From: Acidobacteriota bacterium
Lineage (GTDB): Bacteria > Acidobacteriota > UBA6911 > JACQTF01
Reading direction: 5' to 3'
Assembly (NCBI GenBank): GCA_016210925.1
Contig: JACQTF010000082.1
Coordinates: 10,002-34,001, forward strand
Length of the DNA stretch: 24,000 nucleotides
Part shown: piece after piece, positions 1 to 16,130 of the stretch
How the letters are laid out: every line of letters begins with the position of its first letter
How positions within the stretch are numbered: the first letter of the stretch is position 1
The notes under the pieces: generated by a model
Database searches by the model: none
The model's input: the letters and a program-made list of their open reading frames with translations, nothing else
Told to the model about the DNA's origin: nothing
Translations under genes and position numbers: made by a program

Positions 1-200
1 AGCCAACAACCTGACCCCAACCTGGAACCGGGCCGACGGACCGAAGCAGACCGCATCAGGCTGAAACTTCCGTCGCTCAGGAGCCTCCAGGACCATCTGC
101 TCACCAGCAATCTCCACCCGATGACATCCCAGAAGTCCCCCTGCGAAGTGGCTGTCCCGCACGGCGAGTCTTTCCCTGAACGAGTCCGCCCTGGACGGCT
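1..200 (+). pseudogene. Usp-domain-like remnant, or the 3' end of an upstream gene, with no in-frame stop before otsA
   Basis: Frame 1 is open from nt 1. Its translation ...KLPSLRSLQDHLLTSNLHPMTSQKSPCEVAVPHGE parallels ...KHPSFLERFFSSVIDSVIQRSPCEVAVLHGD in the first Usp domain of the permease at 11456..13750. Nt 137-189 align colinearly with 13237-13289, about 39/53 identical by hand count (26/30 in the core). The frame then runs out of frame into otsA, giving the junk Arg/Gly-rich ORF 121..627. Confidence 0.35.
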
Positions 201-241
201 CATGCACCATAGTCTTGCGTACAGTATGGTATCCTCCAACC

Positions 242-1726
242 ATGAGAGCTGCCGTGGGACGCGCCCAGGGGCGTCGGGGACTGATCGTGGCTTCGTTCCG
301 AAGCCCGTACAACTTTCGCCTCACGGCCGGCGGATGGGTGTCCGAACGAACTGTCGGAGGGTTGGTTTCGGCCCTGGAACCGGTGCTCAAACAATGGGGT
401 GGAACGTGGGTTGCGGTTCGCAGCAGCGAGCACGCCGACCTGCCGGCGCACCTGGACGTTCCGCTGGAGCAGCCTTCCTTTCGTCTGGTCTGGGTGGGTC
501 TGAAGGAACGAGAAGTCAGCCATTTCTACCACGGGTTCTCCAATCGGGTGCTCTGGCCCCTGTGTCACGATTTCTGGGAGCGGTGCCACTTTCGGCAGGA
601 TTACTGGCGAGATTATCTGGGGGCTAACGCCCGCATGGCTCAGTCCCTGGGAAAGGCCTCAGCGCCGGGCGATTGGATCTGGGTCCACGATTACCATCTG
701 GCGCTGGTGCCCCACATGCTGAGAAAGCTTTTGCCCAAATCCCGCGTGGCGCTCTTCTGGCACATTCCGTTTCCTCCGGCGGAGATTTTCGGTCTGCTGC
801 CCTGGCGGCGGCATCTCCTGCGAGGACTTCTGGGAGCGGATGGGGTCGCCTTTCACGTTCCGCTCTGGAAGAATCATTTCCTGGAGACGGTGTCGCGATA
901 CTTGCCGGGTGCGGAAGTCGACCCGGATGCCGGACGAGTCCTTTATGAGGGGCGGCAGACCTGGGTGGAAGCCATCCCCATCGGGATCGATGTGCAAAGC
1001 TATCAGCCCACGGCGGAACACGTGCGTCGCTCGCTGCAGCTCCGCCGGGGGCTCCGGAAGCGCCAGGTCATCCTGGGGGTGGACCGGCTGGATTACACCA
1101 AGGGCATTGTTCAGCGACTGGAGGCGTTCGGTCGGTTTCTGCAGTTGTATCCGGAGTTCAAGCGTCGCGTGGTTTTTGTCCAAATTGCCGTCCCCAGCAG
1201 AACGAGGGTCCCCGAGTACGTGGAGATGACCCGCTCCATCGAGGGAACGGTGGGGCGGATCAACGGGCAGTTCACCACCGAGGATTGGGTTCCGATTCGC
1301 TACATCTATCGCAGCCTGCCCACCTCCGAGCTGATTCCCTATTATCTGGTGGCCGACGTGGCCCTGGTCTCACCCCTCCGGGATGGCATGAACCTGGTGG
1401 CCAAGGAATATGTGGCCGCCAACGCTGAAGGGAAGGGAGTCCTCATCCTGAGCGAGTTTGCAGGTGCTGCCCAGGACTTGAAGGAGGCCCTGCTGGTCAA
1501 TCCCCTCAACGTGGAGGAGGTGGCCCACACGTTGGGGCTGGCTCTCCGGATGAAGCTGGCCGAGAAGGCGGAGCGGATGGCGCGCCTTCGGGAACGGGTC
1601 CTGAGGCGCGATGTTTTCTGGTGGGTGGAGCAGAACCTCGGGTTGCTGTCCCGGGAAGGAAGAAGCGCAGCCTCGGCCCCCGTTCCACGAGGTGCCGCCG
1701 ATGGTAGCCCATCTAGGGGGGCATGA
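242..1726 (+). CDS. otsA: Alpha,alpha-trehalose-phosphate synthase (GT20 family, OtsA)
   Basis: GT20 signature stretches are present: RVLWPLCHD, WVHDYHLALVP, FWHIPFP, LGVDRLDYTKGI, SPLRDGMNLVAKEY. The ORF track starts at TTG 215; I prefer ATG 242 (MRAAVGRAQGRRGLIVASFRSPY). The stop TGA 1724-1726 overlaps the otsB ATG (ATGA). Confidence 0.92.
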   Translation: MRAAVGRAQGRRGLIVASFRSPYNFRLTAGGWVSERTVGGLVSALEPVLKQWGGTWVAVRSSEHADLPAHLDVPLEQPSFRLVWVGLKEREVSHFYHGFSNRVLWPLCHDFWERCHFRQDYWRDYLGANARMAQSLGKASAPGDWIWVHDYHLALVPHMLRKLLPKSRVALFWHIPFPPAEIFGLLPWRRHLLRGLLGADGVAFHVPLWKNHFLETVSRYLPGAEVDPDAGRVLYEGRQTWVEAIPIGIDVQSYQPTAEHVRRSLQLRRGLRKRQVILGVDRLDYTKGIVQRLEAFGRFLQLYPEFKRRVVFVQIAVPSRTRVPEYVEMTRSIEGTVGRINGQFTTEDWVPIRYIYRSLPTSELIPYYLVADVALVSPLRDGMNLVAKEYVAANAEGKGVLILSEFAGAAQDLKEALLVNPLNVEEVAHTLGLALRMKLAEKAERMARLRERVLRRDVFWWVEQNLGLLSREGRSAASAPVPRGAADGSPSRGA

Positions 1727-2526
1727 GAGGGCGAGCCATGGATCCCTCCCAAGGACCGCGTGGGCAACTGATGGCTCCTGAGGTCCTGGCGGGCGCCTTG
1801 AAGGCACGGCGGCTTTTTTTGTTTCTGGACTATGATGGGACGTTGATGCCCTTTTCCGGCGATCCGGGTCGCGTGGTTCCCGACGGCGAACTCTTGGGGT
1901 TGTTGGCAGCACTTCTCCAGAAGCCTGGCTGGAAAGTCGGTATCGTCAGCGGGCGCGCTCTCGAGGACCTCCGGCGCCTGTTTCCGGTTTCGGGATTTTT
2001 CCTGGTGGGGTCGCACGGGGCAGAGATTCAAGACGGGCAGGGCCAGGTCTTGCGCTCGGATGATCCAGCAGAGTTCCGACGGTTGCTGGGTGGGATTCGG
2101 GAGGCCCTGAAGGACGTGGATCTGGGCGAAGGGGTCTTGCTGGAAGAGAAGCCTTACGCCCTGGCGCTTCACTATCGTCAGGCTCCGGAGGGGTTGCCAT
2201 CAGAATCCCTGGACGCATTTCGCCGGGCGTGCCAGCCAGCGGTGGAGAGGGGGATTCTTCAGTGGCTCTGGGGTGATCAGGTGGTGGAGGTGCGGACCGC
2301 CCGTGCCCACAAGGGAACGGCGGTGGATCAGATCCTGGCGCAGCAGCCACCGGGCGTTCACCCGGTGTACCTGGGCGACGACGCCACGGACGAGGATGCC
2401 TTTCGAGCCCTTCAGGGAAGGGGAACCACTGTGCGGGTGGGGGCCGAAGATCGGGCCACGCAGGCCCGATACCAGTTTCGAAATGTCTCCGAGGTGCGTC
2501 GATTCTTGAAGGCCGTGGTGGATTGA
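1723..2526 (+). CDS. otsB: Trehalose-6-phosphate phosphatase (HAD-IIB, OtsB)
   Basis: HAD motif I is LFLDYDGTLMPF, motif II GIVSGR, motif IV YLGDDATDEDAF. There is an ATGA overlap with otsA, and the gene order is the classical otsA-otsB order. Confidence 0.9.
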   Translation: MRGRAMDPSQGPRGQLMAPEVLAGALKARRLFLFLDYDGTLMPFSGDPGRVVPDGELLGLLAALLQKPGWKVGIVSGRALEDLRRLFPVSGFFLVGSHGAEIQDGQGQVLRSDDPAEFRRLLGGIREALKDVDLGEGVLLEEKPYALALHYRQAPEGLPSESLDAFRRACQPAVERGILQWLWGDQVVEVRTARAHKGTAVDQILAQQPPGVHPVYLGDDATDEDAFRALQGRGTTVRVGAEDRATQARYQFRNVSEVRRFLKAVVD

Positions 2527-3230
2527 TGGGGTACTCCGGGGCCGCTGTTCCGCTGCCATGGGAGAGGAGGATGGAGACCAGGTTCGTCTTCTACGGTGAG
2601 GCCGGGCTTCCCGTGTACGCCAATTTCCGAGCTGACGGTCTCCGCTCGCTTCTGAAGGGAATCGAGACGGTGAGCGGATCGTCCATCTATTATCATTTCC
2701 ACCACGCGCTGTTTCGCCGGCACTTCATCACTTCGGACTACCTGAACGATTTTGCCCGGTGGGTTTGGCTCCATCTCAACGAGCCCAGCCTGGCGGAAAA
2801 ACTCGCCAGTCTCGATCCCGTCGACTATGGCACCGTTCGAGAAGCTCGTGAGGCATTGTGGCGACTGATTCGGGAGGCCGTGGGCGCCAGCGAGTCGGTC
2901 TTCCGGGTCCCCGAGGGTGAGGAATTCTATTTCTCGGAGCTCAGGAGCTTCGTTTACCCCGTGGGGTTGGAGGCCACAGACCTGGAGAGCTTCGGCCGTG
3001 TCCTGGACCAGGTGCCCGACGGGTCCCTCTTGTATCACTTCATTGCAGCAGCGGCGCGCCTGGGTCACCCTCGCAACGATTTCTCTCTGTGGTTGGAATT
3101 CTTGGGGGAAGAGGAGCTGGCCAGGCAGTTCGATCGCGTAAGCCCTTACGCGTACAACCTCCATCAGCTCCGTGCCCGAATGGTGGAGCTGATCCGGGCC
3201 AGGTTGGACCATGTCCGCGACGCTGGGTGA
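2526..3230 (+). CDS. Conserved hypothetical protein built from two tandem homologous ~100-aa halves, function unknown
   Basis: The reading frame is clean and non-repetitive. ATG 2526 shares one nt with the otsB stop (TGATG). An alternative start is ATG 2571, directly after GGAGAGGAGG. The 3' end overlaps the next gene by 20 nt. The internal duplication is visible by eye (details in findings). It may correspond to a catalogued DUF family, which I cannot verify here. Confidence 0.7.
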   Translation: MGYSGAAVPLPWERRMETRFVFYGEAGLPVYANFRADGLRSLLKGIETVSGSSIYYHFHHALFRRHFITSDYLNDFARWVWLHLNEPSLAEKLASLDPVDYGTVREAREALWRLIREAVGASESVFRVPEGEEFYFSELRSFVYPVGLEATDLESFGRVLDQVPDGSLLYHFIAAAARLGHPRNDFSLWLEFLGEEELARQFDRVSPYAYNLHQLRARMVELIRARLDHVRDAG

Positions 3231-4449
3231 CTACGTCGAGTGGCTGGGTCAAGGGGAGATCCGGGAGATCGAGCGCCTCGCGGGATTTCTCGGACCGCTG
3301 CGGGTCCAGCACATCAACTCCACCGCGGAAGGCGGTGGCGTGGCGGAGATCCTTCACCGGCTCATCCCTCTCAAGAAAGAAGTGGGCCTGCACCCCCAGT
3401 GGACCGTCATAGAAGGAGAGCAGGCCTTCTTCGACGCCACCAAGGCGTTTCACAACGCCCTCCACGGGCGCCGCACCGAAATCTCTCGGGAGGCGTTCCA
3501 TGTGTTCCGGGAGACGGGGAAGAAGAACCTGAACAAAGTCCAGCGGGATGCGGACGTGGTGGTGATCCACGACCCCCAGCCGCTGCCCCTGGTGGAGGCC
3601 CGGGACCAAACCCGGGCGCGGTGGGTCTGGCGCTGCCACATCGATCTCTCCGAAGCAGATCCCCGGGTCTGGGGGTTTTTGCGGGGTTTTGTGGAGCGTT
3701 TTGACGCCGCCATCTTTCACCTGCCCGAATATACCCAGCACGTGGGGATCGACCAGTACTTGCTCATGCCGGCCATCGACCCTCTGAGCGAAAAGAATCG
3801 AGACCTTCCCTCGGGGGAAGTTCAAAAGGTGCTGGAGCGCTTTTCCGTCGATCCCGAGCGACCGATCCTCCTCCAGGTTTCCCGCTTCGACTACCTGAAA
3901 GATCCGCTGGGCGTTCTGGAAGCCTACCGAAAGGTGAAGCGGTGGGCGGATTGCCAGCTGGTCCTGGCCGGCGGCGGGGCCAGCGATGACCCCGAGGGGG
4001 AGCGCGTCTACCGGGAGGTACTGTCGCGGGTCGATGATGCTGACGTGCACGTGCTCCAGCTTCCGCCCGACAGCCATCGGGAGATCAACGCCCTGCAGCG
4101 GGCGGCCACCATCGTCATTCAGAAGTCCATCAAGGAAGGATTCGGCCTGGTAGTGACGGAAGCCATGTGGAAGGGAAAACCGGTTATCGGTGGCAATGTG
4201 GGAGGGATCCGACGGCAGGTTCTGCACGGTGTCACGGGGTTCCTTGTGAATACGGTGGAAGGTGCCGCCTTTCGGATTCGCCAATTGCTCAGCGATCCGG
4301 TGCTTCGCCAGCGGATGGGAGAACAGGCGCGCGAACTGGTTCGCAGTCGGTTCTTGCTGCCCCACTACCTCCGCAACTGGCTCCTGGTGCTCCTGGCCCT
4401 GCGCAACCCGGGGCGGGGCGTCTTTCGCCTGGGCCTGCCCGCCGACTGA
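3211..4449 (+). CDS. GT4-family glycosyltransferase of the TreT / trehalose synthase-like subgroup
   Basis: The N-terminal region DYVEWLG...LRVQHINSTAEGGGVAEILHRLIPL...FFDATKAFHNALHG matches my recollection of archaeal and bacterial TreT-type enzymes. The C-terminal GT-B motif is SIKEGFGLVVTEAMWKGKPVIGGNVGGI. The start overlaps the preceding gene. Confidence 0.85.
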   Translation: MSATLGDYVEWLGQGEIREIERLAGFLGPLRVQHINSTAEGGGVAEILHRLIPLKKEVGLHPQWTVIEGEQAFFDATKAFHNALHGRRTEISREAFHVFRETGKKNLNKVQRDADVVVIHDPQPLPLVEARDQTRARWVWRCHIDLSEADPRVWGFLRGFVERFDAAIFHLPEYTQHVGIDQYLLMPAIDPLSEKNRDLPSGEVQKVLERFSVDPERPILLQVSRFDYLKDPLGVLEAYRKVKRWADCQLVLAGGGASDDPEGERVYREVLSRVDDADVHVLQLPPDSHREINALQRAATIVIQKSIKEGFGLVVTEAMWKGKPVIGGNVGGIRRQVLHGVTGFLVNTVEGAAFRIRQLLSDPVLRQRMGEQARELVRSRFLLPHYLRNWLLVLLALRNPGRGVFRLGLPAD

Positions 4450-4496
4450 TGGGTGGCGCTGATCCGGCCATCCACCAGCTGCTGGCCGCGGCTTCG

Positions 4497-4895
4497 CTAG
4501 AAAACCACGTGACCCTGGAGAGGTTGCTGGTGCCGGCCGTTCTGGCGGTGGCGGCAGCTTTTCACCTTCCAGTGCAATAGTCCCTGACGCATATACTTCG
4601 GATTGAGCCCTAAAGCTGTGCAGATATTTTGGAAGGAAAACGGCCAACGGCTGTTCTCCTCCAGGATCCAGTCCTCTGCGTCACGAAACATCCTTTTCCC
4701 TGCGTCGGTTCGAGCGTGAATATGCTTCTGGAAACACGCAACGGCATCTTCCAACACTGCTAACATGAGTCTCTTTTCCGGCTCTGTGTGATCGTCTCTG
4801 CGAAAGGTCTCAATCTGCCGTGCAGCAAGGAGGTTGCCCACATGCAAAATGGAAGCGACCTTCGCGCCTCTGAGGCTTGCCAAGGCTTTAGCCAC
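4497..4895 (-). CDS. Small hypothetical protein (133 aa) in a lower-GC islet
   Basis: The minus-strand ORF is 4497..4937. The best start is GTG at 4895, preceded by AAAGGAGGG with a 6-nt spacer. The core EKRLMLAVLEDAVACFQKHIH...AEDWILEENSRWPFSFQNICTALGLNPKYMRQGLLHW looks like a genuine folded small protein. I recognise no family. The gene is convergent with the GT4 gene. Confidence 0.5.
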   Translation of the reverse strand: MAKALASLRGAKVASILHVGNLLAARQIETFRRDDHTEPEKRLMLAVLEDAVACFQKHIHARTDAGKRMFRDAEDWILEENSRWPFSFQNICTALGLNPKYMRQGLLHWKVKSCRHRQNGRHQQPLQGHVVF

Positions 4896-5274
4896 ATCTA
4901 CCCTCCTTTCGGGTGCGGACCAAGTCAGGCAACACATCCGACCCTAGAACAAAAGACGCCGCAACGCAGAGTTTGTTTCAGAATTTCAGCTCCCCGGTCA
5001 CGTCTCAGGCGGCCGGGTCGCATGCTCCGCGAAATAGCCGTTTCTGGAAGGTCTCCTGCGGCTGCTACACTCTGACGTGTGCGTGCCACGATGGATGGGC
5101 GCGCGAGTCGGGCCGAGGTCCAGTAGTATCCAGGATGGGAGGCGATCGAGAATCGGCGTACGGGTCTCCGGGGGGGGTGGCTCCGCGCTGTCCGCCCTGG
5201 GCTGGACTGGACTCCGGCACGGTCCTCTGGAACAATGAAGGCTCCCGGTCGGTGGTCATCGAGGCCTGAAACGG

Positions 5275-5530
5275 CACGGAAAGCCCTGGGTGCGGATCCC
5301 GGCAGCAGCGGGAGTGGCTCGCGTCTCCGATGTTGGGCTCGTCACGCGGACGCTGTCGCGGGTGGGTGCCTGGGAGCCGTCTCAATGATGCCATCGAAGC
5401 CAGCTTCTGTCCAAAGGAGATCTAGTCCAGGTCCGGTAGCGGGAGTTGCACATCGGATCGGCCAATGGATGGACCTGCGCGCTCTCCCAGGTCTCGATGC
5501 CGAACATGGGCGCCGGGCGGCAGGGAGACG
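5275..5530 (+). pseudogene. Decayed copy of the 3' third of an MscS-family gene, paralogous to 8096..8482
   Basis: Nucleotide similarity to 8096-8475 is clear. The first 25 nt, cacggaaagccctgggtgcggatcc, are identical, and identity is about 70% over the next ~80 nt by hand. Translations match in pieces: GKPWVRIPAAAGVARVSDVGLVTRTL vs GKPWVRIRVPVGVAYGTDVQLVTRTL; SRLNDAIEASF vs SRLNYAIEASF; LHIGSANGWTCALSQVS vs LHIKSADGLAGALSHVS. These pieces lie in different frames with in-frame stops, and about 120 nt are deleted relative to ~8191-8310. Weaker similarity may extend upstream to ~5130. Confidence 0.75.
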
Positions 5531-5586
5531 CCCAGGTGGGTTACTATGCAAGAAGATCCGCGCCCGGGATCGCGGGAGGAAATGGC

Positions 5587-7356
5587 ATGACGTTGGAGAT
5601 TCTGCTGGTGCTGGTTCTTCTGGCCGTGGTCGCCACCCTGTTCGCGCTGGAGTGGCTTTCCGTGGACGTGGTGACGCTGTTGCTCCTGGTGGTGCTGGTG
5701 ATCTCGGGCGTCCTCACCCCTGAAGAGGCGTTTTCCGGGTTTGCCAACGACATCATCATCATCCTGGCCTCGGTCTTCGTCCTGTCCGGCGCCTTCGTGA
5801 AAACCGGCGTCATGGACTGGCTCGGCACGGCCATCAACGAATGGTCCGGGGGCAGTCGGGCCAAGGTCTTGCTGTTTGTGATGACGATCACCGCCGCCGT
5901 CTCCGCTTTCATGAACAACACCACCACCACGGCCATCTTTATGCCAGCCGTGTTCGGGCTGTGCAAGAGGAGTCACCTCCGTGCCAGCCAGTTGCTCATC
6001 CCTCTGGCCTTTGCCTCCATGTTGGGAGGAAGCTGTACGCTGATTGGAACCTCGACCAACGTGGCGGCCAGCGGCTTTCTCCACCGGAGCAAACTTCAGC
6101 CGTTCTCCTTGTTTGAGTTCCTTCCCGTGGGCTTGACGGTGGTCGTGGCCGGGACCATCTACATGTCTCTGTTGGGTTATCGGCTGCTGCCAAAGATGAG
6201 AGAAGCCAGCTACACGGACGACTATCAGATCAGGGAGTATCTCTCCGAGATTTTGATTCCCGAGGGCTCTGCCGTGGCGGGAGAAGTGATTGAAGACACG
6301 CCGCTGGCGAAAATGGATCTCGCGGTGCTGGAGATCATCCGGGGGGACCTCAGGCTCTACCCCGAGCCCGACACGCCCCTGAGAGAGGGAGACATCCTGA
6401 TTGTGGAGGGCACTCGAGACAGTTTGCTGCGGGTGAAGGAAGTTTCAGGCATTGAGATCAAGGCGGATGTCCAGTTGGGGGACAAGGATTTGATCACCGA
6501 CACCATCAAGGTCGCGGAAGCCATCGTCATGCCGCAGTCCAACCTGATCGACAGGACCTTGAAGGAGCTCAGTTTCCGGCAACGGTTTGGAGTCTCGGTG
6601 CTGGCCATCTACCGGAAGGGGCATGCCCTGGCTGCCAAGCTGGCAAGCCTGCGCTTGCGGGTGGGGGATGTCCTGTTGCTGCAGGGGCGCGCAAAACAGT
6701 TCGAGTCTATTGCGGGCAATCCCGACTTGTGGGTCCTCGAGGAGATGGTTCACGTGCCCTTCCGGAGGCAAAAGGGCGTCTATGCCATTGTGGTGCTGTT
6801 GATGGCAGTCACGGCGGGAGGGTTCAAGCTGCTCCCGTTGTCCATTGCCTTTCTGTTGGCTGCCCTGGCTGCCGTGCTGTGGAAGTGCATCACCACGGAG
6901 GAGGCCTATGGTTTTGTGGACTGGCGCCTGCTGATCTTGATCGGAGGGATGACGACCTTTGGCCTGGCCATGGAAAAAACCAAAGCGGCCGAATTTGTGG
7001 CGAGCTGGATCCTCCATTGGACACTGCCCTTTGGCGTCTACTTCATTCTGGCGGGTTTCTTTCTCATGACCGTCCTGCTCACCCAACCCATGTCCAACGC
7101 GGCCGCAGTCCTGGTGATCCTGCCGGTGGCTCTCAGCACCGCCCGTCAGCTGGATGTGAATCCTCGCACCTTTGCCGTTTTGGTGACCCTTGCCGCGTCC
7201 CTGTCTTTCATCACGCCCTTCGAGCCCGCCCTCCTGTTGGTCTACGGGCCCGGCAAGTACCGGTTTCGCGACTTCGTCATCAACGGCTTGCCGTTGACCC
7301 TGATCGCGTTCGTCATCGTGATGGTGATCGTGCCCCTGTGGTGGCCGTTGAGGTGA
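5587..7356 (+). CDS. SLC13/DASS-family anion permease with two central TrkA-C (RCK_C) domains
   Basis: The N-terminal segment EWLSVDVVTLLLLVVLVISGVLTPEEAFSGFANDIIIILASVFVLSGA is typical. Two TrkA-C-like segments are present: EILIPEGSAVAGEVIEDTPLA...GDILIVEGTRDSL and AEAIVMPQSNLIDRTLKEL...VGDVLLLQGRAKQF. A C-terminal transporter repeat follows. I chose ATG 5587 (GGGAGG 8 nt upstream) over the track start at 5446, because the upstream in-frame extension is the tail of the MscS remnant. Confidence 0.9.
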   Translation: MTLEILLVLVLLAVVATLFALEWLSVDVVTLLLLVVLVISGVLTPEEAFSGFANDIIIILASVFVLSGAFVKTGVMDWLGTAINEWSGGSRAKVLLFVMTITAAVSAFMNNTTTTAIFMPAVFGLCKRSHLRASQLLIPLAFASMLGGSCTLIGTSTNVAASGFLHRSKLQPFSLFEFLPVGLTVVVAGTIYMSLLGYRLLPKMREASYTDDYQIREYLSEILIPEGSAVAGEVIEDTPLAKMDLAVLEIIRGDLRLYPEPDTPLREGDILIVEGTRDSLLRVKEVSGIEIKADVQLGDKDLITDTIKVAEAIVMPQSNLIDRTLKELSFRQRFGVSVLAIYRKGHALAAKLASLRLRVGDVLLLQGRAKQFESIAGNPDLWVLEEMVHVPFRRQKGVYAIVVLLMAVTAGGFKLLPLSIAFLLAALAAVLWKCITTEEAYGFVDWRLLILIGGMTTFGLAMEKTKAAEFVASWILHWTLPFGVYFILAGFFLMTVLLTQPMSNAAAVLVILPVALSTARQLDVNPRTFAVLVTLAASLSFITPFEPALLLVYGPGKYRFRDFVINGLPLTLIAFVIVMVIVPLWWPLR

Positions 7357-7386
7357 CCGGCGAGGCAAGACCATCGCTGGGCAACG

Positions 7387-7530
7387 CTAGGCGATGGGAT
7401 GGGTTGGGCCGTGGCTTTGGATTCTCGCATCGGGTGCCAGCAGGACCTTGTACCATTCCTTGGAGAACTCCTGCGCCAAGCGGGATCGGAACGGTTCCGA
7501 ATCTTGGACGAAACGTACCTTTTCAGCCAT
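7387..7530 (-). CDS. Possible small protein (47 aa) divergent from the mscS gene
   Basis: ATG at 7530 is preceded by GGAGG with a 5-nt spacer. The product is MAEKVRFVQDSEPFRSRLAQEFSKEWYKVLLAPDARIQSHGPTHPIA. By hand count 32 of 47 codons end in G or C. It occupies the 214-nt gap between the permease and mscS. No family is recognised. Confidence 0.3.
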   Translation of the reverse strand: MAEKVRFVQDSEPFRSRLAQEFSKEWYKVLLAPDARIQSHGPTHPIA

Positions 7531-7570
7531 GGTTCCTCCGTGGCCGGTCAAGAGGAGTGAGGGAAGAGTC

Positions 7571-8482
7571 ATGACTTGGGTGGGTCGCTTGGAACGTGTC
7601 TTGTATTTTCGCCTCTTTGACATCGGTGGTCAGGCCATTACCCCGGTCCAGCTGTTGATCTTGGGCCTGGCCCTGGTGGTCACCCTGTACCTGGCGCGGT
7701 GGGTGGGGCGGCTGTCGGAGCAGCGATTGCTGCGCCAGATCGATGTCGGTCCTCGATACACCATCGTCCGATTGACCCAGTACGCCATCTGGGCCATGGG
7801 GATCCTGGTGGCGTTGAAACTGCTCAACATCGACCTGACGGCGCTTGCGGTGGTGGCCGGCGCCTTGGGCGTGGGCATCGGCTTTGGCTTGCAAAACGTG
7901 GTGGCCAATTTCGTCGCGGGTCTCGTTCTGCTTTTTGAGCGGCCCATCAAGGTGAACGATCGGGTGACCATTGAGAATGTGGAGGGGAATGTGGTGGCCA
8001 TCAACTTTCGCTCCACCACCATTGAGACCAACGATAATATCGCCATCATCGTGCCCAACTCGGATTTCATCAATCGCACGGTGATCAACTGGTCGCACGG
8101 AAAGCCCTGGGTGCGGATCCGGGTGCCGGTGGGAGTGGCTTACGGGACCGATGTCCAACTGGTGACGCGCACGCTGCTGGAAGTGGGTGCCGAGACCGAG
8201 GGCGTGATGAAGGAGCCTGCTCCCAAAGTACGATTCAAAGAGTTCGGCGACTCATCGCTCCAATTCGAGCTGCTCGTGTGGACGGATGAGCTGGCACGCC
8301 ACCAGCGGCTGCGGAGCCGCCTCAACTATGCCATTGAAGCCAGCTTCCGGCGCACGGGGATCCAGATCCCGTTTCCGCAGCGGGATCTGCACATCAAATC
8401 GGCCGACGGATTGGCTGGGGCGCTCTCGCACGTCTCAGTGTCGCCAACAGCGCCTCCAGGCAGTGGAAAGGCGACGAGCTGA
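7571..8482 (+). CDS. Small-conductance mechanosensitive channel (MscS family)
   Basis: The MS_channel core is GIGFGLQNVVANFVAGLVLLFERPIKVNDRVTIENVEGNVVAINFRSTTIETNDNIAIIVPNSDFINRTVINW, followed by a C-terminal alpha/beta domain. I chose ATG 7571 (GAGGAG/GAGGGA upstream) because the track start at 7394 adds non-membrane junk. Confidence 0.9.
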   Translation: MTWVGRLERVLYFRLFDIGGQAITPVQLLILGLALVVTLYLARWVGRLSEQRLLRQIDVGPRYTIVRLTQYAIWAMGILVALKLLNIDLTALAVVAGALGVGIGFGLQNVVANFVAGLVLLFERPIKVNDRVTIENVEGNVVAINFRSTTIETNDNIAIIVPNSDFINRTVINWSHGKPWVRIRVPVGVAYGTDVQLVTRTLLEVGAETEGVMKEPAPKVRFKEFGDSSLQFELLVWTDELARHQRLRSRLNYAIEASFRRTGIQIPFPQRDLHIKSADGLAGALSHVSVSPTAPPGSGKATS

Positions 8483-8571
8483 GTTGCTACGAAAATACAC
8501 GCAGCCCCTTGGGGCACGCTCCCGACGAGTTACTCAGGACAAGGCGACCCCCGGAGGTTGAAGGGTGGGCC

Positions 8572-9158
8572 ATGAAGAGCCCTGCTTGGAAGGTGGTCGA
8601 CTGGCTTCAGGGGCAATCCCAAGTGCTCTTGATCGCACTTGGATTCGTCCAGGTGGCAACTATCGGGGTAGTTGACTACTTCACGGGCGCGGAGATTGTT
8701 CTCTCGGTTTTTTATTTAGTCCCCGTTTCTTTGGTCGTCTGGTTTACAGGGAGCTGGCCCGGCGCCGTGATGTCTGCCGCCAGTTGTGCAGCCTGGTTCC
8801 TGGCCGATTCGGTGGGGGGAGCAAGGTTTTCATCAGCTTTTGTTCCTTACTGGAATGCTGGCGTGAGACTGGGGTTTTTCTTGATTGTGACGGTGATGAA
8901 TTCGCTATCCTGCTGCCGGAGATGGGACCTGAGACGGCCCGGCTGGCGATTGACAAGGTTCAGAGGAACCTTTTAGAGGTGATGGAAAAGAACGAATGGC
9001 CCGTCACCTTCAGCATTGGCGTTGTCACGTTCACTGTGCCGCCAGGTTCCGTGGATGAAATGATCCAACGGGCAGATGCTGCGATGTATGGTGCAAAGAA
9101 CCGGGGCAAAAACGGGATTCGGCAGGTGGTGTGGGAGGGATTGCGGCCCACCGCATGA
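8572..9158 (+). pseudogene. Membrane-anchored diguanylate cyclase (GGDEF) gene disrupted by an internal frame-shifting deletion
   Basis: Frame 1 (8572..~8890) encodes a membrane sensor-type N-terminus: VDYFTGAEIVLSVFYLVPVSLVVWFTGSWPGAVMSAASCAAWFLAD. Frame 3 from ~8889 encodes only the distal half of a GGDEF domain: DGDEFAILLPEMGPETARLAIDKV...TFSIGVV...ADAAMYGAKNRGKNGI. The linker and the proximal half of the domain are absent. The junction is near 8888-8892. Confidence 0.7.
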
Positions 9159-9213
9159 AGGGTCATCGCGCTTGGCACAAGGACCCGTGGTTCGGCCCGG
9201 GTCGGGGCCACGG

Positions 9214-9897
9214 CTACGGTTTTCCAAATCGCGGATCACGCCAGGCATAGTCCTCGGGTTTTGCCACCGCCTCGTTGATCCATTCGATCACTGCCGCAAA
9301 CCCCAGGCTTTCCAGGTCGTGGCGCAGGTAGTCGGGCACCACGGCCAGGACACGGAAGCCGCGCTTGAGCTGGAAAGACAGGGTGGGATCGGAGAGTTCC
9401 TCGTTGACGACCTTGATCACGTAGTCTTCGGCGCTCATCTGGTGGACGTATCGATGATAGCCTCGCAGCCGCGCCCCTGAGCGGATTCGCAGCAGTCCCA
9501 GGCGCTCCGCCAGGCCTCGCCGGGCTTCGTACAGCTTTGTGCCGATGCCTCTCTGCTGTCGCGACGGCGGTACCATCACATCGGCTCCATAGAGCGTGCG
9601 CCCCCGCTCTGGGTCATGGTTAGTGAACATGCCGTGGTCCGTGAAGTCGCGCCAGCTTGCCTTCAGGTCGTAGTCATCCCACAGGACCATCAGGCTGGCC
9701 GCCATTCCCACAACCCGCTGCGAGACCGACTCCACGGCGACGAACTGTCCTTCCGGAAACACCCTCAAGTGAGAAGCCAGCTGTTCTGCGGTCCAGGGAC
9801 GGGCCATGGGATAGATCTGGCGGCTCATGTCGATGATGGCGGAAAAATCCTCTGGCCGAGTGTTGCGAGCCGCGATTTTGGAACGGGCTCCGGTCAT
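9214..9897 (-). CDS. GNAT-family N-acetyltransferase
   Basis: The acetyl-CoA binding motif is PPSRQQRGIGTKLYEA (Q/RxxGxG/A type) within a GNAT-length fold. The ATG overlaps the stop of the upstream hydrolase gene (ATGA at 9894-9897). Confidence 0.85.
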   Translation of the reverse strand: MTGARSKIAARNTRPEDFSAIIDMSRQIYPMARPWTAEQLASHLRVFPEGQFVAVESVSQRVVGMAASLMVLWDDYDLKASWRDFTDHGMFTNHDPERGRTLYGADVMVPPSRQQRGIGTKLYEARRGLAERLGLLRIRSGARLRGYHRYVHQMSAEDYVIKVVNEELSDPTLSFQLKRGFRVLAVVPDYLRHDLESLGFAAVIEWINEAVAKPEDYAWRDPRFGKP

Positions 9898-10781
9898 ACG
9901 GGAACCACCTCCAGCCGGGACACGATCTCGGCGGTGCGGCGGCTCTCCAGCAAGGGCAGCACGGTGCCTGAGGAGCGGCTCTCCGCGATCGTTTTCAAGT
10001 TGAGTTCGCCGATGACCATCATTTCCTGGTTGGGGTTTCCCTCGGCGAGGATGCCGTCACGCGAGAAAGCGAAATCGCTGGGTGTGACAATGGAAGCCTG
10101 GCCGTAGTTCAAAGAGACGGCCGGCACCATGGGCAGGGATCCCACGGTGGTGGAGTGGATCACGTACATCTGATTTTCGATCGCCCGGGAATGGGCACAG
10201 TAACGAACCCGCAGGAAGCTTTGGCGGTCGTCGGTGCAGCTGGGCACGGCCAGGATGTGGGCGCCCTCCCGCGCTCCGGCCCGGGCAATTTCCGGGAATT
10301 CCACGTCATAACAGATGGCGATCGCCACCTTTCCGAAGTCGGTCTCAAAAACCCGCAGGACGGAGCGCGGCGAGACTTTCCACTCCTCGGTCTCAAAGCG
10401 GGTCATGTGCAGCTTGCCCTGGATGCCGACGTTGCCCGAGGGACCGAAGAAGAAAGAGTCGTTGTAGATCAAGTCCGCGCCGTCGTCCATGACCGGAATG
10501 GTGCCAGCCACGATATAGAGGCGATTCTTTCTGGCCAATTCCCGCATCAGCTCCAGGAAGCGCGGCACCTGTTTGGCCAGATCCCGGATCTGCTCGTTGA
10601 TCGGCCTCTTGACGTTCCCCAGGGTCAACAGCTGGACTGTGAAGTACTCCGGGAACACCAGCAAGTGACACTTGTAGTCCGCCGCCGTGTCGACCAGCGC
10701 TTCCACCTGATCGCGGAACTGATCGAACGTCTGCACCGGCCGGATGAAGTACTGCAGCGAGGCAACACGAATGCGCTCCAT
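9894..10781 (-). CDS. Carbon-nitrogen hydrolase (nitrilase superfamily) protein
   Basis: The Glu-Lys-Cys triad contexts are LLVFPEYF, GKLHMTRFE and VAIAICYDVEFPE. The length of 295 aa fits the family. It is translationally coupled to the GNAT gene. Confidence 0.9.
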   Translation of the reverse strand: MERIRVASLQYFIRPVQTFDQFRDQVEALVDTAADYKCHLLVFPEYFTVQLLTLGNVKRPINEQIRDLAKQVPRFLELMRELARKNRLYIVAGTIPVMDDGADLIYNDSFFFGPSGNVGIQGKLHMTRFETEEWKVSPRSVLRVFETDFGKVAIAICYDVEFPEIARAGAREGAHILAVPSCTDDRQSFLRVRYCAHSRAIENQMYVIHSTTVGSLPMVPAVSLNYGQASIVTPSDFAFSRDGILAEGNPNQEMMVIGELNLKTIAESRSSGTVLPLLESRRTAEIVSRLEVVPV

Positions 10782-11078
10782 GACCTCCCCCTTGCTCGCT
10801 GAATGGTTTGTGTTCGTAACAGGGCCTAAGGTGAAATAATATGGCGAAGGCTGAGTCTTTCCGTTTCGAGCGAGTGTTGGAAGGGTTTGGCTTCGTTCGC
10901 CAGGCCCACTTGCTGTTCCATTCGTTCCGTTCAGAGTCCTTACGGTACCTCAGAGATCTTCCAAAGTCCAGGCCTTGGCTGCCCGGGTCTGCCCGGGTGG
11001 CGTCAAGCTGGAGCCTGTTGCCCAAGTGCCCTTCTGACGTGGGTCGCCCCGGGCGCGGGACCCAGCCGGGCACCAGGT

Positions 11079-11102
11079 TCCCGTTGGGGCGGCCCAACGG
11101 GA
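11079..11102. terminator. GC-rich hairpin just downstream of the small minus-strand ORF
   Basis: CCCGTTGGG-GCGG-CCCAACGGG forms a perfect 9-bp stem, or 10 bp with the flanking T/A pair. It lies 12 nt 3' of the stop at 11114-11116 on the minus strand. A T-rich run (tctttctt) follows only on the plus strand. Confidence 0.3.
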
Positions 11103-11113
11103 TCACCTCTTTC

Positions 11114-11254
11114 TTAGAAGTTGAAATTGGTGCGCAAAGTAGGAATCCACTGCAAGAGGGGCAACCGTTCCTGCGCCGGACGGTCTCGTGCTGTGAGTTT
11201 TCCGCAGGCGAACAACAGGGTGACGGCCACCCTCAGGAGCCTCTTTTGCTTCAT
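11114..11254 (-). CDS. Possible 46-aa lipoprotein
   Basis: ATG at 11254 is preceded by GAGGAGGAAGCC. The product is MKQKRLLRVAVTLLFACGKLTARDRPAQERLPLLQWIPTLRTNFNF, with a basic n-region, a hydrophobic core and a lipobox-like LFAC. A hairpin follows the stop. Confidence 0.35.
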   Translation of the reverse strand: MKQKRLLRVAVTLLFACGKLTARDRPAQERLPLLQWIPTLRTNFNF

Positions 11255-11372
11255 GGCTTCCTCCTCTCCGTTTCGCCTTCGGCCTCGACTCGTCCCCGGG
11301 CGGTTTGGACCCGCCTTTGGGCCGCGTGCGCTCGGACGGAGGGCGGACGTTGCTTGCAGCACCCCCAATGAG

Positions 11373-11400
11373 GGCCTTAGAATGTGTCAAGGCCTTAGAA
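11373..11400 (+). promoter_or_regulatory. Direct repeat GGCCTTAGAA-N8-GGCCTTAGAA upstream of the permease gene
   Basis: Exact 10-nt copies lie at 11373-11382 and 11391-11400, 56-83 nt upstream of ATG 11456, in a locally AT-richer stretch. It is a candidate operator or promoter element. Confidence 0.25.
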
Positions 11401-11455
11401 GTCAGGACGGAGTGAAAGCTTAGCATCTAACCCGGAGGGCAGCGGAACTCTTTTC

Positions 11456-13750
11456 ATGAAAAAGTTCGAGACGGAAGTTCGTTTAAGCCGTGAGATGACC
11501 TTGATGGACGTGACGCTCATTGGCGTCGGTGCCATGATCGGGGCCGGCATTTTCGTCCTGACAGGCATCGCCGCCGGCGTGGCCGGTCCGGCCCTCATCC
11601 TGGCGTTTGCACTCAATGGATTCGTTACTCTCTTCACCGCCATGGCCTACGCCGAGTTGGGGTCCTGCTTCCACGACGCCGGCGGCGGCTATCTGTGGGT
11701 GAAAGAAGGGCTGCCCAAGTGGAACGGATTTCTGGCGGGCTGGATGAGCTGGTTCGCCCACGCCGTGGCGTGCAGTCTGTATGCGCTGGGGTTCGGGGCC
11801 TACTTTGGTCATGTGCTCCAGGAGCTGGGAATCTCGGTGCCTCAGTGGGGATTTCTGTCGCCCCAGAAGATTCTGGCGGCGGCCGTCGCCGTGATCTTTG
11901 CCTATGTCAACTTCAGGGGAGCCTCCGAGACCGGTAAAGTGGGCAACCTGGTGACCGTGGCCAAGATTGTGATCCTGGCCATTTTTATCGGTTTCGGCCT
12001 GGAATTACTGTTCGGTCGAGGGGACTGGAAACAAGCGTTTACCCCCTTCATGCCCAACGGTTGGGGCGGTGTCTTCAGCGCCATGGGGCTGACCTTCATC
12101 GCCTTCGAGGGATACGAGATCATCTCCCAATGCTCCGAGGAAGTCAGGGACCCGAAGAGGAACATCCCCAGGGCGGTCTTTCTCTCCATCCTGATCGTCA
12201 TTCCCATCTATCTTCTGGTGGTGGTCACCGCCCTGGGGGCGGTCCAGCCGGAAAACACGACCCCCTGGGATTACCTGGCCTTGCACAAGGAGCTGGCCCT
12301 GGTGCGGGTGGCCGAAACTTTCTTCGTGGGCGGGGGCCTGATGATCCTGGTGGGCGGCCTGGTCTCCACCATGTCGGCCTTGAATGCCACCATCTATTCT
12401 TCCTCCAGGGTGGCCTTTGCCATGGGGCGAGATCGGAACTTCCCCACCCTCTTCAGCCGGGTCCACCGCAAACAATTTACGCCTCACTGGGCCATCTTGG
12501 TCTCACTGGCGATCATCCTGTTGATGGCCTTCTCTCTGCCCATCGAGGACGTGGCCAGCGCCGCCGACATCATGTTCTTGCTTCTGTTTCTGCAAGTCAA
12601 CGCCGCCTTGATTCCTCTTCGGAAGAAGAGACTGGACCTGGACCGGGGATTTGTGACGCCCTGGTTGCCGTGGATCCCCATCGTGGGGATCGCCACCCAG
12701 TTGGCGCTGGCCCTTTACATGTTCAAGTACAGCCCGACGGCGTGGGTGGTCACCGCGGGATGGATCGCCCTGGGGCTGGTGATCTACAAGCAATACGCTT
12801 CGGGCAGAGAAATCGAACACGCGCGAAAGGTGAGGGCGCTGGAGCGCCTCGAGGAACGCCAGTATCGGATCCTGGTCTGCGCCTCGAAACCTGGGACGAT
12901 GCGAAGTCTGACCAGCGTCGCCATGGCGGTGGCGAAAAAGTTCCGGGGAGAGATCATCTTCTTGCATGTCATCGAGGTCAAGGAGGGCCAGCCGCTCATG
13001 GCCGGTCTCACTGAGACGACCCGCGTCCAACCCCTTTTCGAGGAAGCCCAGTCCCTGGTGGAGGAATCGGGGATATCCTCTCGCTCTCTTCTCAAGGTGT
13101 CCCATCGCATCTCCCAGGGCATCGTGGAGACCGCCCGCGAAGAAGAGTGCAACTTCCTCATCATGGGGAGGCAGAAGCATCCCTCGTTTCTGGAGAGATT
13201 TTTTTCCTCCGTGATCGACAGCGTGATTCAGAGATCTCCCTGCGAGGTGGCGGTCCTGCACGGCGACCTGTTGCGCGACGGCGTCCGCCAGATCTTCATT
13301 CCCTTTGGCGAGAACATCCACACGCGCCTGGCCCTGGAGATGGCGCCGACCTTGGTCGCCTACTTCCAGTGCCGGCTCAGGGTGGCCATGGTCCTGGATC
13401 CCGATCTGTCCCCTGCCCACAAGGAGCGAATGCGGGCGGGCGTCAAAGCACTCCTGGAGAAGAACGCCGTCCCTGCCCAACTGGAGGTCGTGGAAGACAC
13501 CGACGTGCTGCGGGCCGTGGTGCAGCGGTCGAGGGACGCCGATTTGATTCTCATGGGTGGACGATCGGGCGATTTTCTGGAGCTGTTCCTGGGATCCTCC
13601 TTGACCCAGGAGATCACGGAGCGGACAGCGAGTCCCGTATTGTGGCTCCGAGAGTACCAGGAACGAGGATCTTTTTGGGCTTCTCTTTTGAGGGCGCCCA
13701 GGCAGGAGGAAAACCAACATGGACAGCGCGATGAAGGAAGTGTTGATTAA
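11456..13750 (+). CDS. APC-superfamily amino acid permease fused to two C-terminal universal stress protein (Usp) domains
   Basis: The N-terminus LMDVTLIGVGAMIGAGIFVLTGIAAGVAGPALILAFALNG is typical of APC permeases, and about 12 TM segments follow. Two Usp-like units come next: YRILVCASKP...NFLIMGRQKH...SPCEVAVLHG and RQIFIPFGEN...ADLILMGGRSG...ASPVLWL. Confidence 0.92.
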   Translation: MKKFETEVRLSREMTLMDVTLIGVGAMIGAGIFVLTGIAAGVAGPALILAFALNGFVTLFTAMAYAELGSCFHDAGGGYLWVKEGLPKWNGFLAGWMSWFAHAVACSLYALGFGAYFGHVLQELGISVPQWGFLSPQKILAAAVAVIFAYVNFRGASETGKVGNLVTVAKIVILAIFIGFGLELLFGRGDWKQAFTPFMPNGWGGVFSAMGLTFIAFEGYEIISQCSEEVRDPKRNIPRAVFLSILIVIPIYLLVVVTALGAVQPENTTPWDYLALHKELALVRVAETFFVGGGLMILVGGLVSTMSALNATIYSSSRVAFAMGRDRNFPTLFSRVHRKQFTPHWAILVSLAIILLMAFSLPIEDVASAADIMFLLLFLQVNAALIPLRKKRLDLDRGFVTPWLPWIPIVGIATQLALALYMFKYSPTAWVVTAGWIALGLVIYKQYASGREIEHARKVRALERLEERQYRILVCASKPGTMRSLTSVAMAVAKKFRGEIIFLHVIEVKEGQPLMAGLTETTRVQPLFEEAQSLVEESGISSRSLLKVSHRISQGIVETAREEECNFLIMGRQKHPSFLERFFSSVIDSVIQRSPCEVAVLHGDLLRDGVRQIFIPFGENIHTRLALEMAPTLVAYFQCRLRVAMVLDPDLSPAHKERMRAGVKALLEKNAVPAQLEVVEDTDVLRAVVQRSRDADLILMGGRSGDFLELFLGSSLTQEITERTASPVLWLREYQERGSFWASLLRAPRQEENQHGQRDEGSVD

Positions 13751-14375
13751 TGTGACCAGAGCCCTGGTGGGCTATTTGCCCAATCTGTTCGTGGGCCTGG
13801 TGTTGATTGCCATCGGCTGGCTGATGGCATGGGTGGTGAAACGGGTCGTGGTCCAACTGTCCAGAATTCTGAGGGTGGACCGTTTTTTCAGGAGATTTGG
13901 CTGGCGGGAGGGCCTAGCCAAGGCCGATGTTCGGTACGCGCTTTACAATTTCTTCGGAAGCATTGCGTTCGTGGTGGTGTTCGCGATCTTTCTCATCGAT
14001 GCCCTTCGGGCCATGAAACTCGCCATGGTCTCCAGCCTCTTGGAAAAGGGCGTCTTCTTCCTGCCCAGTTTGATCGCATCGCTGATCATCTTTGGAGTGG
14101 GATGGCTCATCTCGTGGCGCGCCGCCCTGGCCATGCAACGGATTCTCATGAGGGAGGAGATCCCGCGGCCCACCTTGATCGCGCGTTTCATCCAGGTGTT
14201 GTTGCTGCTCTTTTTCTCCGCCATGGCCCTGGTGGAGCTCTCCATCGCTCGGGAGATCGTGATCATCGGGTTTACCACCGCCTTCCTGACCATCGGGGTG
14301 CTGACCATTGTGTTGACTGCCCGAGGAGGCAAGGCGTTCGTCGCTGCTCTCTCCAGGTCCCGGGAGGAGGAATAG
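13719..14375 (+). CDS. Small membrane protein with repeated conserved TM-helix motif (MscS-N-terminal-like TM_helix repeat protein)
   Basis: AGGAGGA lies 9 nt before ATG 13719. The gene overlaps the permease 3' end by 32 nt. An internal repeat is visible: YLPNLFVGLVLIAIGWLMAWVVKRVV vs FLPSLIASLIIFGVGWLISWRAALAM. It is a paralogue of 20992..21696. Confidence 0.75.
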   Translation: MDSAMKEVLINVTRALVGYLPNLFVGLVLIAIGWLMAWVVKRVVVQLSRILRVDRFFRRFGWREGLAKADVRYALYNFFGSIAFVVVFAIFLIDALRAMKLAMVSSLLEKGVFFLPSLIASLIIFGVGWLISWRAALAMQRILMREEIPRPTLIARFIQVLLLLFFSAMALVELSIAREIVIIGFTTAFLTIGVLTIVLTARGGKAFVAALSRSREEE

Positions 14376-15028
14376 ACCCGCCGATCCTCCTCAGGTGACG
14401 GGAGCGCGGCCGGGCCGCCGTGGGGACGGGTCTGTGTGTGGGAGGCTTGCCGGCGCTGCCAGTGGCTCCGGCCACTCGCCCAGCGACGGGACCTTTCCTT
14501 GCGTGACCAGACGCCCGCCGCTGGCGGTTCATTGTCCTTGCTGCTCCATCGGTTCCTCCCAACGCCGGCTTGTCGCCGATAGCCGACATCCCTGGTGGAA
14601 TTTCTGCTTGGCAGTGTCATGGACCGCCCCGAGGTGGTGGCTTTCTGACGGGTCTGTTGCGGCACCTGGCGGCCCTGGCGATCGCCTGGGATGGCCTGGC
14701 GCGCCAGCGCGGAGGCATCGCCCTCCTGCCTGGTTGGGGTCCTGGACAACTGTTGGGGTGCGCGACAAATTTGTGCGTAGGTCCCGACCTGCAGATCGCA
14801 ACTGAGCGGCATGGAGCCCAAGCTTGGCAAAGGAGGCTCATCGTCAAGGCGAAGGCTGGCAGTGACCGAACACTCAAGGAGCACAAAAGCAGCTTGCGGT
14901 GACAGGCGCTGTCGGATAAAATCCAATCATCCTCTAAATGCAGGTGGCAGCTGATTCCGGTTTCGAGAATTCTCTGGTTCACTTTCTTCGCGCAATTGAG
15001 ATAGAGGCGCTGCAATGCCACCGGACGG

Positions 15029-15865: not shown

Positions 15866-15869
15866 GGCG

Positions 15870-16130
15870 TTGGGACCGCGACGCGTCTCGACGTTGCCAG
15901 ATCCGTCGTCCCCTGAGATAGCAGAGATCGTTGCAGATGATTTCGCTGCCAATGGCGAGATGATCGGATCCCTCGGTCTTCCCACGCTCATTATCCAGGA
16001 AGGTGGATACGACAACCGGGTTCTCGGGTTAAACGTCCTCAAATTTCTTCAGGGAGTGTGGTCGAGCGCCTTCCGGTTCGACAAACGTTCTGCACATGAA
16101 TGTGCAGATTCTGCGCGTGTGGTATACTGA
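15870..16130 (+). pseudogene. C-terminal fragment of a histone deacetylase / acetylpolyamine amidohydrolase-family gene
   Basis: DPSSPEIAEIVADDFAANGEMIGSLGLPTLIIQEGGYDNRVLGLNVLKFLQGV matches the terminal DP(I)S...GLP.L.VQEGGY...LG.N...FL.G block of HDAC-family enzymes. The catalytic N-terminal ~250 aa are absent. The fragment begins 4 nt after the stop of the preceding hypothetical gene. Confidence 0.6.

Follow-up and report, generated by a model that had tools for sequence, protein, structure and literature searches.

The question raised by this locus is why a gene for a 25-kDa protein is wedged between a trehalose phosphatase gene and a glycosyltransferase gene, and what its product does there. 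The locus lies in a stretch of 24,000 nucleotides from an Acidobacteriota bacterium (contig JACQTF010000082.1, positions 10,002 to 34,001; about 61% GC), called the window below, and consists of four genes: otsA, otsB, the gene in question, which we call orfY, and treT. Trehalose is a major stress protectant. The analysis indicates that in Archaea as well as Bacteria orfY and treT are a near-obligate pair joined by translational coupling, and that the bacterial pair usually lies within an mscS-(yggT)-otsA-otsB cluster, in which mscS encodes a mechanosensitive channel. The orfY gene of the window is a typical free-standing member of this widespread arrangement and adds no new principle. The added value lies at the level of the family, where the near-obligate coupling, the conserved gene overlap and natural fusions of OrfY to MscS channels and to maltokinase lead to a testable hypothesis for OrfY.

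An earlier note on this DNA regarded the 25-kDa protein as a component without assigned function and as the most likely novelty of the operon. It is the most interesting part of the operon, but it has already been classed. The protein is a full-length member of the DUF5752 family (PF19027; 201.9 bits against a cut-off of 23, E 9.7e-60, model positions 2-207 of 208) and a homologue of OrfY from Thermoproteus tenax, for which a structure is available (4CSO). This entry was the single PDB match of a profile built from 41 homologues (E 1.1e-50), and it is also matched by window OrfY as a single sequence (E 1.7e-29). An AlphaFold2 model of window OrfY (pLDDT 90.2, pTM 0.82) matches 4CSO in Foldseek with an E value of 5e-16, TM-scores of 0.78/0.84 and 34% identity. 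The same Foldseek search of the PDB returned nothing beyond 4CSO, the next hit having an E value of 0.33, and as modelled the fold is otherwise an orphan. No family besides DUF5752 was found for window OrfY in a Pfam/NCBIfam scan. The family itself is large: clustered at 50% identity it has 1,501 representatives, and at 90% it forms at least 4,525 clusters; the closest named relative of the window protein, with 54% identity, comes from a metagenome-assembled genome of the Acidobacteria. In the full-text literature open to our search we found no description of a function for OrfY and no paper mentioning DUF5752, OrfY together with trehalose, or (relevantly) the structures 4CSO and 6ZJ4, the latter being that of a Thermoproteus TreT.

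The four genes are open reading frames (ORFs) on one strand, which in the ORF listing of the window occupy positions 215/242-1726, 1723-2526, 2523/2526-3230 and 3211-4449. The first, otsA (242..1726, plus strand, with an alternative TTG start at 215), encodes a trehalose-6-phosphate synthase (TPS) of glycosyltransferase family GT20, matching PF00982 with 442.3 bits (cut-off 32.5, E 2.7e-132) and TIGR02400 with 489.6 bits, which is under the equivalog cut-off of 564.85. The trehalose-6-phosphate phosphatase (TPP) of HAD-IIB type encoded by otsB (1738..2526, plus strand; likely start ATG 1738, alternative ATG 1723) scores 139.8 bits against TIGR00685, over the equivalog cut-off of 68.05, and 112.8 bits against PF02358 (E 1.8e-32). 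A stop codon at 1724-1726 keeps the ORFs of OtsA and OtsB separate, and there is no fused TPS-TPP. They are followed on the plus strand by orfY (2571..3230, 219 aa) and by treT (3211..4449), which encodes a trehalose glycosyltransferring synthase of family GT4. The Pfam/NCBIfam and PDB matches thus bear out the identities first proposed for OtsA, OtsB and the TreT-like GT4.

All four genes had been described as translationally coupled. The ORFs exist as listed and the three junction strings can be read in the DNA: ATGA at 1723-1726 between otsA and otsB, TGATG at 2524-2528 between otsB and the third gene, and the treT ATG at 3211 upstream of the orfY TGA at 3228-3230, which gives an overlap of 20 nt (3211..3230, plus strand). 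Only this last overlap, however, is robust. Those at the otsA/otsB and otsB/orfY junctions are doubtful because they need the most upstream start codon, with which the N-termini of homologues and the public gene calls disagree; overlaps are less probable at these two places than short gaps. In the public call for identical DNA (locus L001), otsB starts at ATG 1738, 11 nt past the otsA stop, and encodes 262 aa, while the third gene starts at ATG 2571, 44 nt past the otsB stop, and encodes 219 aa. Directly before ATG 2571 stands GGGAGAGGAGG. The nearest OrfY homologues are 214-219 aa long, their N-termini coincide with M16 ('METRF') of the longer ORF, and the alternative ATG at 2526 is unsupported by homologues. 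The treT start at 3211 is backed by N-terminal alignment with other TreTs. In a scan of positions 1-5600 for promoters and terminators, a weak minus-strand site was the only promoter-like hit, and the terminator-like hits were intragenic. The chain of stop/start overlaps, taken in the earlier note as a sign of co-production or complex formation, is unremarkable alone since short overlaps are frequent in operons; what is remarkable is that the orfY/treT overlap, a conserved translational-coupling junction, is kept across phyla.

For the GT4 two readings had been offered, a TreT enzyme or an activator like that of T. tenax, and the data support the first. At the N-terminus of the protein lies the TreT-specific domain PF21269 (184.2 bits against a cut-off of 27, E 1.4e-54), at the C-terminus the GT-B domain PF00534 (100.6 bits). 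The protein matches the crystallised Thermoproteus TreT 6ZJ4 with 53% identity (E 8e-132, 443 bits) and the Pyrococcus horikoshii TreT 2X6Q with E 1.9e-105, the identity to the latter being 46% in the TreT alignment. By these measures it is nearer to the Thermoproteus TreT than to the Thermococcales TreT; its score of 395.8 bits against NCBIfam NF041139 (TreT_Thcocales) is under the cut-off of 775 of that model, which was trained on Thermococcales. In an alignment of TreTs from P. horikoshii, Pyrobaculum, Saccharolobus and bacteria, the E-x7-E pair (E309, E317) as well as R225 and K230 are invariant, E309 being aligned to E326 of the P. horikoshii enzyme. The motifs GGGVAE (G41-E46), HDPQP (H120-P124) and WRCHID (W140-D145) are likewise invariant. 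Judged by its sequence, the GT4 of the window is orthologous to TreT and has kept its catalytic motifs, and since the catalytic and donor-binding motifs are invariant it looks like an active TreT, predicted to form trehalose from nucleoside diphosphate (NDP)-glucose and glucose. As a separate observation, one of the related loci (L005) carries a second TreT-like GT4 (6023-7177, minus strand), 41% identical to window TreT, which stands divergently beside otsB-otsA and lacks an OrfY; this locus additionally carries a normal orfY-treT pair.

The gene neighbourhood of orfY was surveyed in two sets of loci, both retrieved by sequence patterns and therefore biased samples. The first comprises 49 GTDB loci found by means of an 8-sequence alignment and the pattern GSSIYYHx[HF][HR], which favours one part of the OrfY family and misses the fusion clades described below. 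The second consists of metagenome loci containing the 80 best matches to window TreT, obtained with TreT patterns, and thus describes the clade of this TreT and not all TreTs. Among the sources of the GTDB loci are Omnitrophota, Elusimicrobiota, Planctomycetota, Dehalococcoidia, Thermodesulfobacteriota, Aminicenantes, Ignavibacteria, Kiritimatiellae, Lentisphaerae, Methylomirabilis, Goldbacteria and Clostridia. TreT is encoded directly 3' of orfY in 45 of the 46 GTDB loci with usable downstream sequence, which come from more than 12 phyla; the sole exception (L050) has a frameshifted pseudogene (2745-3364), with TreT 1.8 kb off. Conversely, orfY stands directly 5' of TreT in 69 of the 70 metagenome loci with enough upstream DNA. 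The survey of third-gene homologues proposed at the outset was therefore strongly positive. The linkage expected there, to TreT-like GT4 or to OtsAB genes, holds for TreT specifically and not for OtsAB.

The spacing of the two genes is equally uniform. Over the 46 GTDB loci the median distance from orfY to treT is -14 nt and, the pseudogene locus apart, no distance is above +9 nt. The two reading frames overlap in 36 of these loci, and 31 of the 36 overlaps measure 14, 17 or 20 nt; the overlap in L041 is about 20 nt. In most loci a purine-rich run resembling a Shine-Dalgarno sequence lies inside the 3' end of orfY, 8-15 nt ahead of the treT ATG. The distance between otsB and orfY, by comparison, spans -20 to +786 nt across related loci. 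Archaeal pairs overlap too: an overlap of 4 nt was found in Pyrobaculum ferrireducens, in Saccharolobus caldissimus and on a contig encoding an OrfY identical to that of T. tenax, whose TreT is 83% identical to 6ZJ4. Some further features of the P. ferrireducens locus (L052) may be mentioned here. An MscS-type gene (4621-5643) lies on the opposite strand close 5' of orfY-treT, with a 75-aa gene between, and a sugar ATP-binding cassette (ABC) transporter consisting of a binding protein, two permeases and an ATPase follows the pair (7961-12062). This layout echoes both the channel link discussed below and the TreT-transporter cluster of the Thermococcales.

Evolutionary distances show the same preference. 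Pairwise distances of OrfY and TreT over 50 loci correlate with r = 0.85, and the partial correlation controlling for OtsA and OtsB is 0.67, while the partial correlation of OrfY with OtsA is -0.10; these coefficients come from non-independent pairs and carry no p-value. OtsA and OtsB are both found within 4 kb in 18 of 25 well-flanked GTDB loci and in 17 of 28 well-flanked metagenome loci, in the varied orders A-B-Y-T, A-Y-T-B and Y-T-A-B (for OtsA, OtsB, OrfY and TreT), and they are absent from several bacterial orfY-treT loci and from the archaeal ones. In many related loci mscS lies upstream of otsA, and in 12 loci a gene of the YggT family (100 aa, PF02325, E 2.1e-23) is inserted between mscS and otsA. 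These 12 loci are labelled Omnitrophota or Planctomycetia (for example 7331-7633 in L013 and 7351-7653 in L014). The orfY-treT pair stays contiguous while OtsA, OtsB and MscS shift or are absent. Since the pair is kept whereas the order of OtsA and OtsB varies or the genes are missing, the invariant unit is orfY followed by treT; the link to OtsAB is frequent yet secondary.

These neighbourhoods bear directly on the second reading of the GT4, in which it would be a non-catalytic activator of OtsA and all four proteins would be parts of a single trehalose synthase complex. A precedent exists in T. tenax, where a glycosyltransferase forms a complex with the fused TPS-TPP protein (TPSP) and is encoded in an msc-gt-tpsp operon (PMC3634074). 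The presence of OtsA and OtsB beside orfY-treT in a majority of the well-flanked loci counted above is consistent with such a complex, as is the frequent adjacency of MscS. The T. tenax activator (TTX_1305), however, is a PimA-like GT4 of 387 aa that acts only on fused TPSP and for which no activity of its own has been reported (PMC3634074), whereas OtsA and OtsB are separate here and the window GT4 is a TreT orthologue that retains all catalytic motifs. Furthermore, Crenarchaeota and several bacterial loci have orfY-treT but no OtsAB, and elsewhere the order of OtsA and OtsB around the pair varies. We therefore consider it very improbable that the GT4 is an activator of this kind.

The resemblance to the T. 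tenax operon lies in the theme. Zaparty et al. 2013 (PMC3634074) noted no comparable operon for other archaeal or bacterial TPS/TPP genes. In both cases TPS and TPP functions, a GT4 and a mechanosensitive channel are clustered, and both share the notion of a regulated complex for trehalose synthesis that is tied to osmostress. T. tenax, however, has a fused TPS-TPP, a PimA-like glycosyltransferase and no OrfY in this operon, while the window has separate OtsA and OtsB and a TreT with intact motifs; the distinction between the window GT4 and TTX_1305 is made on the description of TTX_1305. The T. tenax operon also includes the channel gene itself, whereas the nearest MscS gene of the window is 2.9 kb downstream, although mscS is adjacent in many related loci. 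The bacterial mscS-(yggT)-otsA-otsB-orfY-treT clusters thus present a theme comparable to msc-gt-tpsp, built from different parts.

Further evidence on OrfY comes from proteins in which it is naturally fused to other domains, and the fusions to MscS and to maltokinase are new here. In three metagenome loci (L102, L127 and L129) OrfY forms the C-terminal part of a protein of 457-463 aa: a full OrfY follows directly after an MscS-like transmembrane region and beta-domain (PF00924), in the place where MscS normally has its C-terminal alpha/beta domain. OtsA and OtsB are encoded upstream of the fusion gene and TreT downstream in all three loci. The MscS-OrfY architecture was found in 14 of the 150 best family representatives at 50% identity, and in two loci (L137 and L138) TreT starts 9 nt past the fusion gene. 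A second type, seen in P0244 and P0263 and in part in the incomplete P0247, joins OrfY to maltokinase (Mak), and its kinase portion matches 4O7O with E 3.5e-49. One such gene lies on a 9978-nt ENA contig (L136) and is followed by TreT with a 4-nt overlap. The gene order on this contig is TreS-like alpha-amylase, GT4/5, Mak-OrfY, TreT, GT2, MS_channel_1st_1 protein and then another OrfY, this one free, before a last gene that is truncated where the contig ends. This order suggests that the OrfY-TreT pair is linked to the route from trehalose to maltose-1-phosphate (GlgE). Whatever is N-terminal to OrfY, TreT is encoded right after the OrfY C-terminus. No fusion of OrfY to TreT was seen among the best 120 and the best 150 family members.

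Several other candidate fusions were set aside. P0327, at first sight an OrfY-TreT fusion, looks like a frameshift-riddled read-through from Mak-OrfY into TreT, and the apparently long OrfY proteins of L072 and L131 are explained by stop-free upstream frames in high-GC DNA. In L049 (120-1532, from a bin labelled Woesearchaeota) the first ~150 residues of an Omnitrophota-type OrfY are in frame with a GT9-like protein, probably as a chimera or a decayed gene. P0323 (485 aa), a possible fusion of trehalose-6-phosphate phosphatase (T6PP) to OrfY, is doubtful, since the first 53 profile positions are missing from its OrfY part and the linker is of low complexity; it may be a frameshift artefact. 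The idea that the MscS proteins of these clusters lack a C-terminal domain that a free OrfY would complete in trans was rejected as well, for they are about 350 aa long and align through the C-terminal domain.

The fusions also bear on the name under which the T. tenax structure was deposited. Entry 4CSO, entitled 'The structure of OrfY from Thermoproteus tenax', gives the molecule name 'ORFY PROTEIN, TRANSCRIPTION FACTOR', and a regulator as the first gene of its own operon, here autoregulating orfY-treT, would be a common layout. Neither the Pfam scan nor the PDB profile search nor Foldseek, however, detected a helix-turn-helix (HTH), winged HTH, ribbon-helix-helix or other DNA-binding fold or family in OrfY, and the isoelectric point is near neutral (median 6.4). 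Fused OrfY forms the C-terminal part of a heptameric membrane channel or of a kinase, and these MscS and maltokinase fusions argue against the label and point instead to a direct link, at the protein level, between compatible-solute synthesis and osmosensing. Moreover, the same protein and junction occur in Archaea and Bacteria despite their different transcription machineries, and a regulator has no need of stoichiometric translational coupling to an enzyme. A DNA-binding role for OrfY is thus unlikely, and we would give it only a small chance.

As a working explanation we propose that OrfY is a non-catalytic regulatory or adaptor module, dedicated to TreT, that ties trehalose synthesis to osmosensing; we consider the odds of this proposal to be about even. 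The operon itself probably serves osmoprotection by making trehalose along two routes. OtsA and OtsB would convert NDP-glucose and glucose-6-phosphate to trehalose-6-phosphate and then to trehalose, and TreT would form trehalose from NDP-glucose and glucose. OrfY would be a cytoplasmic, non-catalytic partner whose ratio to TreT is fixed by the position of the treT start, usually together with the ribosome-binding site, inside the 3' end of orfY. It would bind TreT and thereby connect trehalose synthesis to the osmosensing hardware, MscS-type channels in particular, substituting for the C-terminal cage domain of the channel in some bacteria and being joined to maltokinase in others. The strict position 5' of treT, the overlapping frames and the selective co-evolution point to TreT itself as the target, and we infer that OrfY binds it physically. 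By Rosetta-stone logic, the MscS-OrfY fusions predict a functional or physical link of OrfY to MscS where the proteins are separate, as in the window, and a connection to membrane tension or to osmolyte sensing appears plausible. A regulatory rather than catalytic role is likewise suggested for OrfY. Recombinant TreTs of T. tenax, Thermoproteus uzoniensis, P. horikoshii and Thermococcus litoralis show activity by themselves in vitro; OrfY is thus dispensable for catalysis and could do no more than modulate the enzyme.

The activity of these enzymes on their own is at the same time one of several points that weigh against a TreT-dedicated OrfY. The treT gene of the Thermococcales is not known to be accompanied by orfY and sits in a trehalose/maltose ABC-transporter cluster. 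The name that the depositors gave to 4CSO is that of a transcription factor. Co-transfer of the gene pair, without contact between the products, could also explain adjacency and correlated distances, and the conserved His/Asp/Trp sets of OrfY could form a small-molecule or catalytic site instead. In the window, finally, the MscS gene is about 3 kb away, past an antisense ORF and a transporter gene, and outside the operon.

A bolder version of the same proposal would make OrfY an adaptor that senses an osmolyte or the tension state and docks TreT on MscS-type channels, as a separate protein here, so that the state of the channel switches trehalose synthesis. We regard this as speculative, with a chance well below that of the general adaptor role. 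If true, it would define a new class of regulatory domain common to Archaea and Bacteria.

The conserved residues of OrfY raise a further alternative. The protein is an internal duplication whose halves are alike at E 3e-5, each repeat consisting of a beta-hairpin and then four or five helices. Near-invariant residues (in the numbering of the 219-aa protein) are F5, F7, A21, H42, D60, F61 and W64 in the first repeat and F119, F121, A135, H156, D170, F171 and W174 in the second, so that both repeats share the pattern F-x-F, A, H, (N)DF..W; E76 and R93 are near-invariant too. Across 166 non-redundant members each of these positions is conserved to 90% or more, A135 (87%) excepted, and those of the two repeat sets are present in the window protein. 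Such polar and aromatic residues, duplicated in both repeats, would suit an accessory protein that binds or converts a small molecule and has a metabolite, not TreT, as its target, for example a sensor of trehalose or glucose or a supplier of free glucose. The association of OrfY with three trehalose-related partners (channel, kinase and neighbouring TreT) is also typical of ligand-sensing modules. In the Foldseek comparison, however, the fold was unlike any known sugar-binding or hydrolase fold, and DUF5752 is the only Pfam/NCBIfam match. The strict overlap with treT and the selective co-evolution of OrfY with TreT further indicate the enzyme as target. An accessory of this kind seems to us an unlikely explanation, though still a serious rival and a better one than a transcription factor. 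The two views overlap in part, as a ligand-sensing subunit of TreT would fit both this alternative and the adaptor role that we prefer, and trehalose, itself a symmetric disaccharide, is a possible ligand of the pseudo-symmetric double H/(N)D/W site.

Among known systems, the nearest to the window operon is the orfY-treT pair of Thermoproteus. It comprises the same two families in the same order, and the two structures, 4CSO and 6ZJ4, were solved separately. The window pair differs in being bacterial and in standing directly behind otsA-otsB in one operon, with MscS and further osmostress genes nearby; the archaeal pairs overlap by 4 nt as against 20 nt in the window. TreT of T. tenax reportedly forms a 'unidirectional pathway' (Kouril et al. 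2008), and orfY and treT are said to be co-transcribed in that organism. TreTs of the Thermococcales (T. litoralis; P. horikoshii 2X6Q) belong to the same enzyme family as window TreT and have the same catalytic residues; they are reversible, in contrast to the T. tenax enzyme (PMC13597711). The MscS-OrfY proteins, for their part, can be compared with MscS channels that carry added cytoplasmic sensors, such as bCNG. They keep the transmembrane region and the beta-domain and have a different C-terminal module, which is OrfY where bCNG has a cyclic-nucleotide-binding domain. The window's own MscS genes are ordinary and unfused.

Downstream of treT, positions 4497-5445 separate the operon from a transporter gene. 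This interval contains a minus-strand ORF (4497-4937; 146 aa, or 132 aa in the public assembly) without a Pfam/NCBIfam family and then about 500 nt without a gene or Rfam match; Rfam gave no match anywhere in the window. The transporter gene (5446..7356, plus strand) encodes a CitMHS/DASS-type permease (PF03600, E 1.1e-84) with two TrkA-C (RCK-C) domains (PF02080, E 1.2e-23) and is followed by the gene for the full-length MscS-type mechanosensitive channel (7394..8482, plus strand; PF21088, PF00924 and PF21082). Further along, an amino-acid permease carries a universal stress protein domain as a fusion (11456-13750), and it is followed by a protein with the conserved transmembrane helix of mechanosensitive channels (13719-14375) and by a second MscS (16483-17571). 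With three MscS-type genes in all and these transporters, the window looks like an osmostress island (5446-8482 and 11456-17571).

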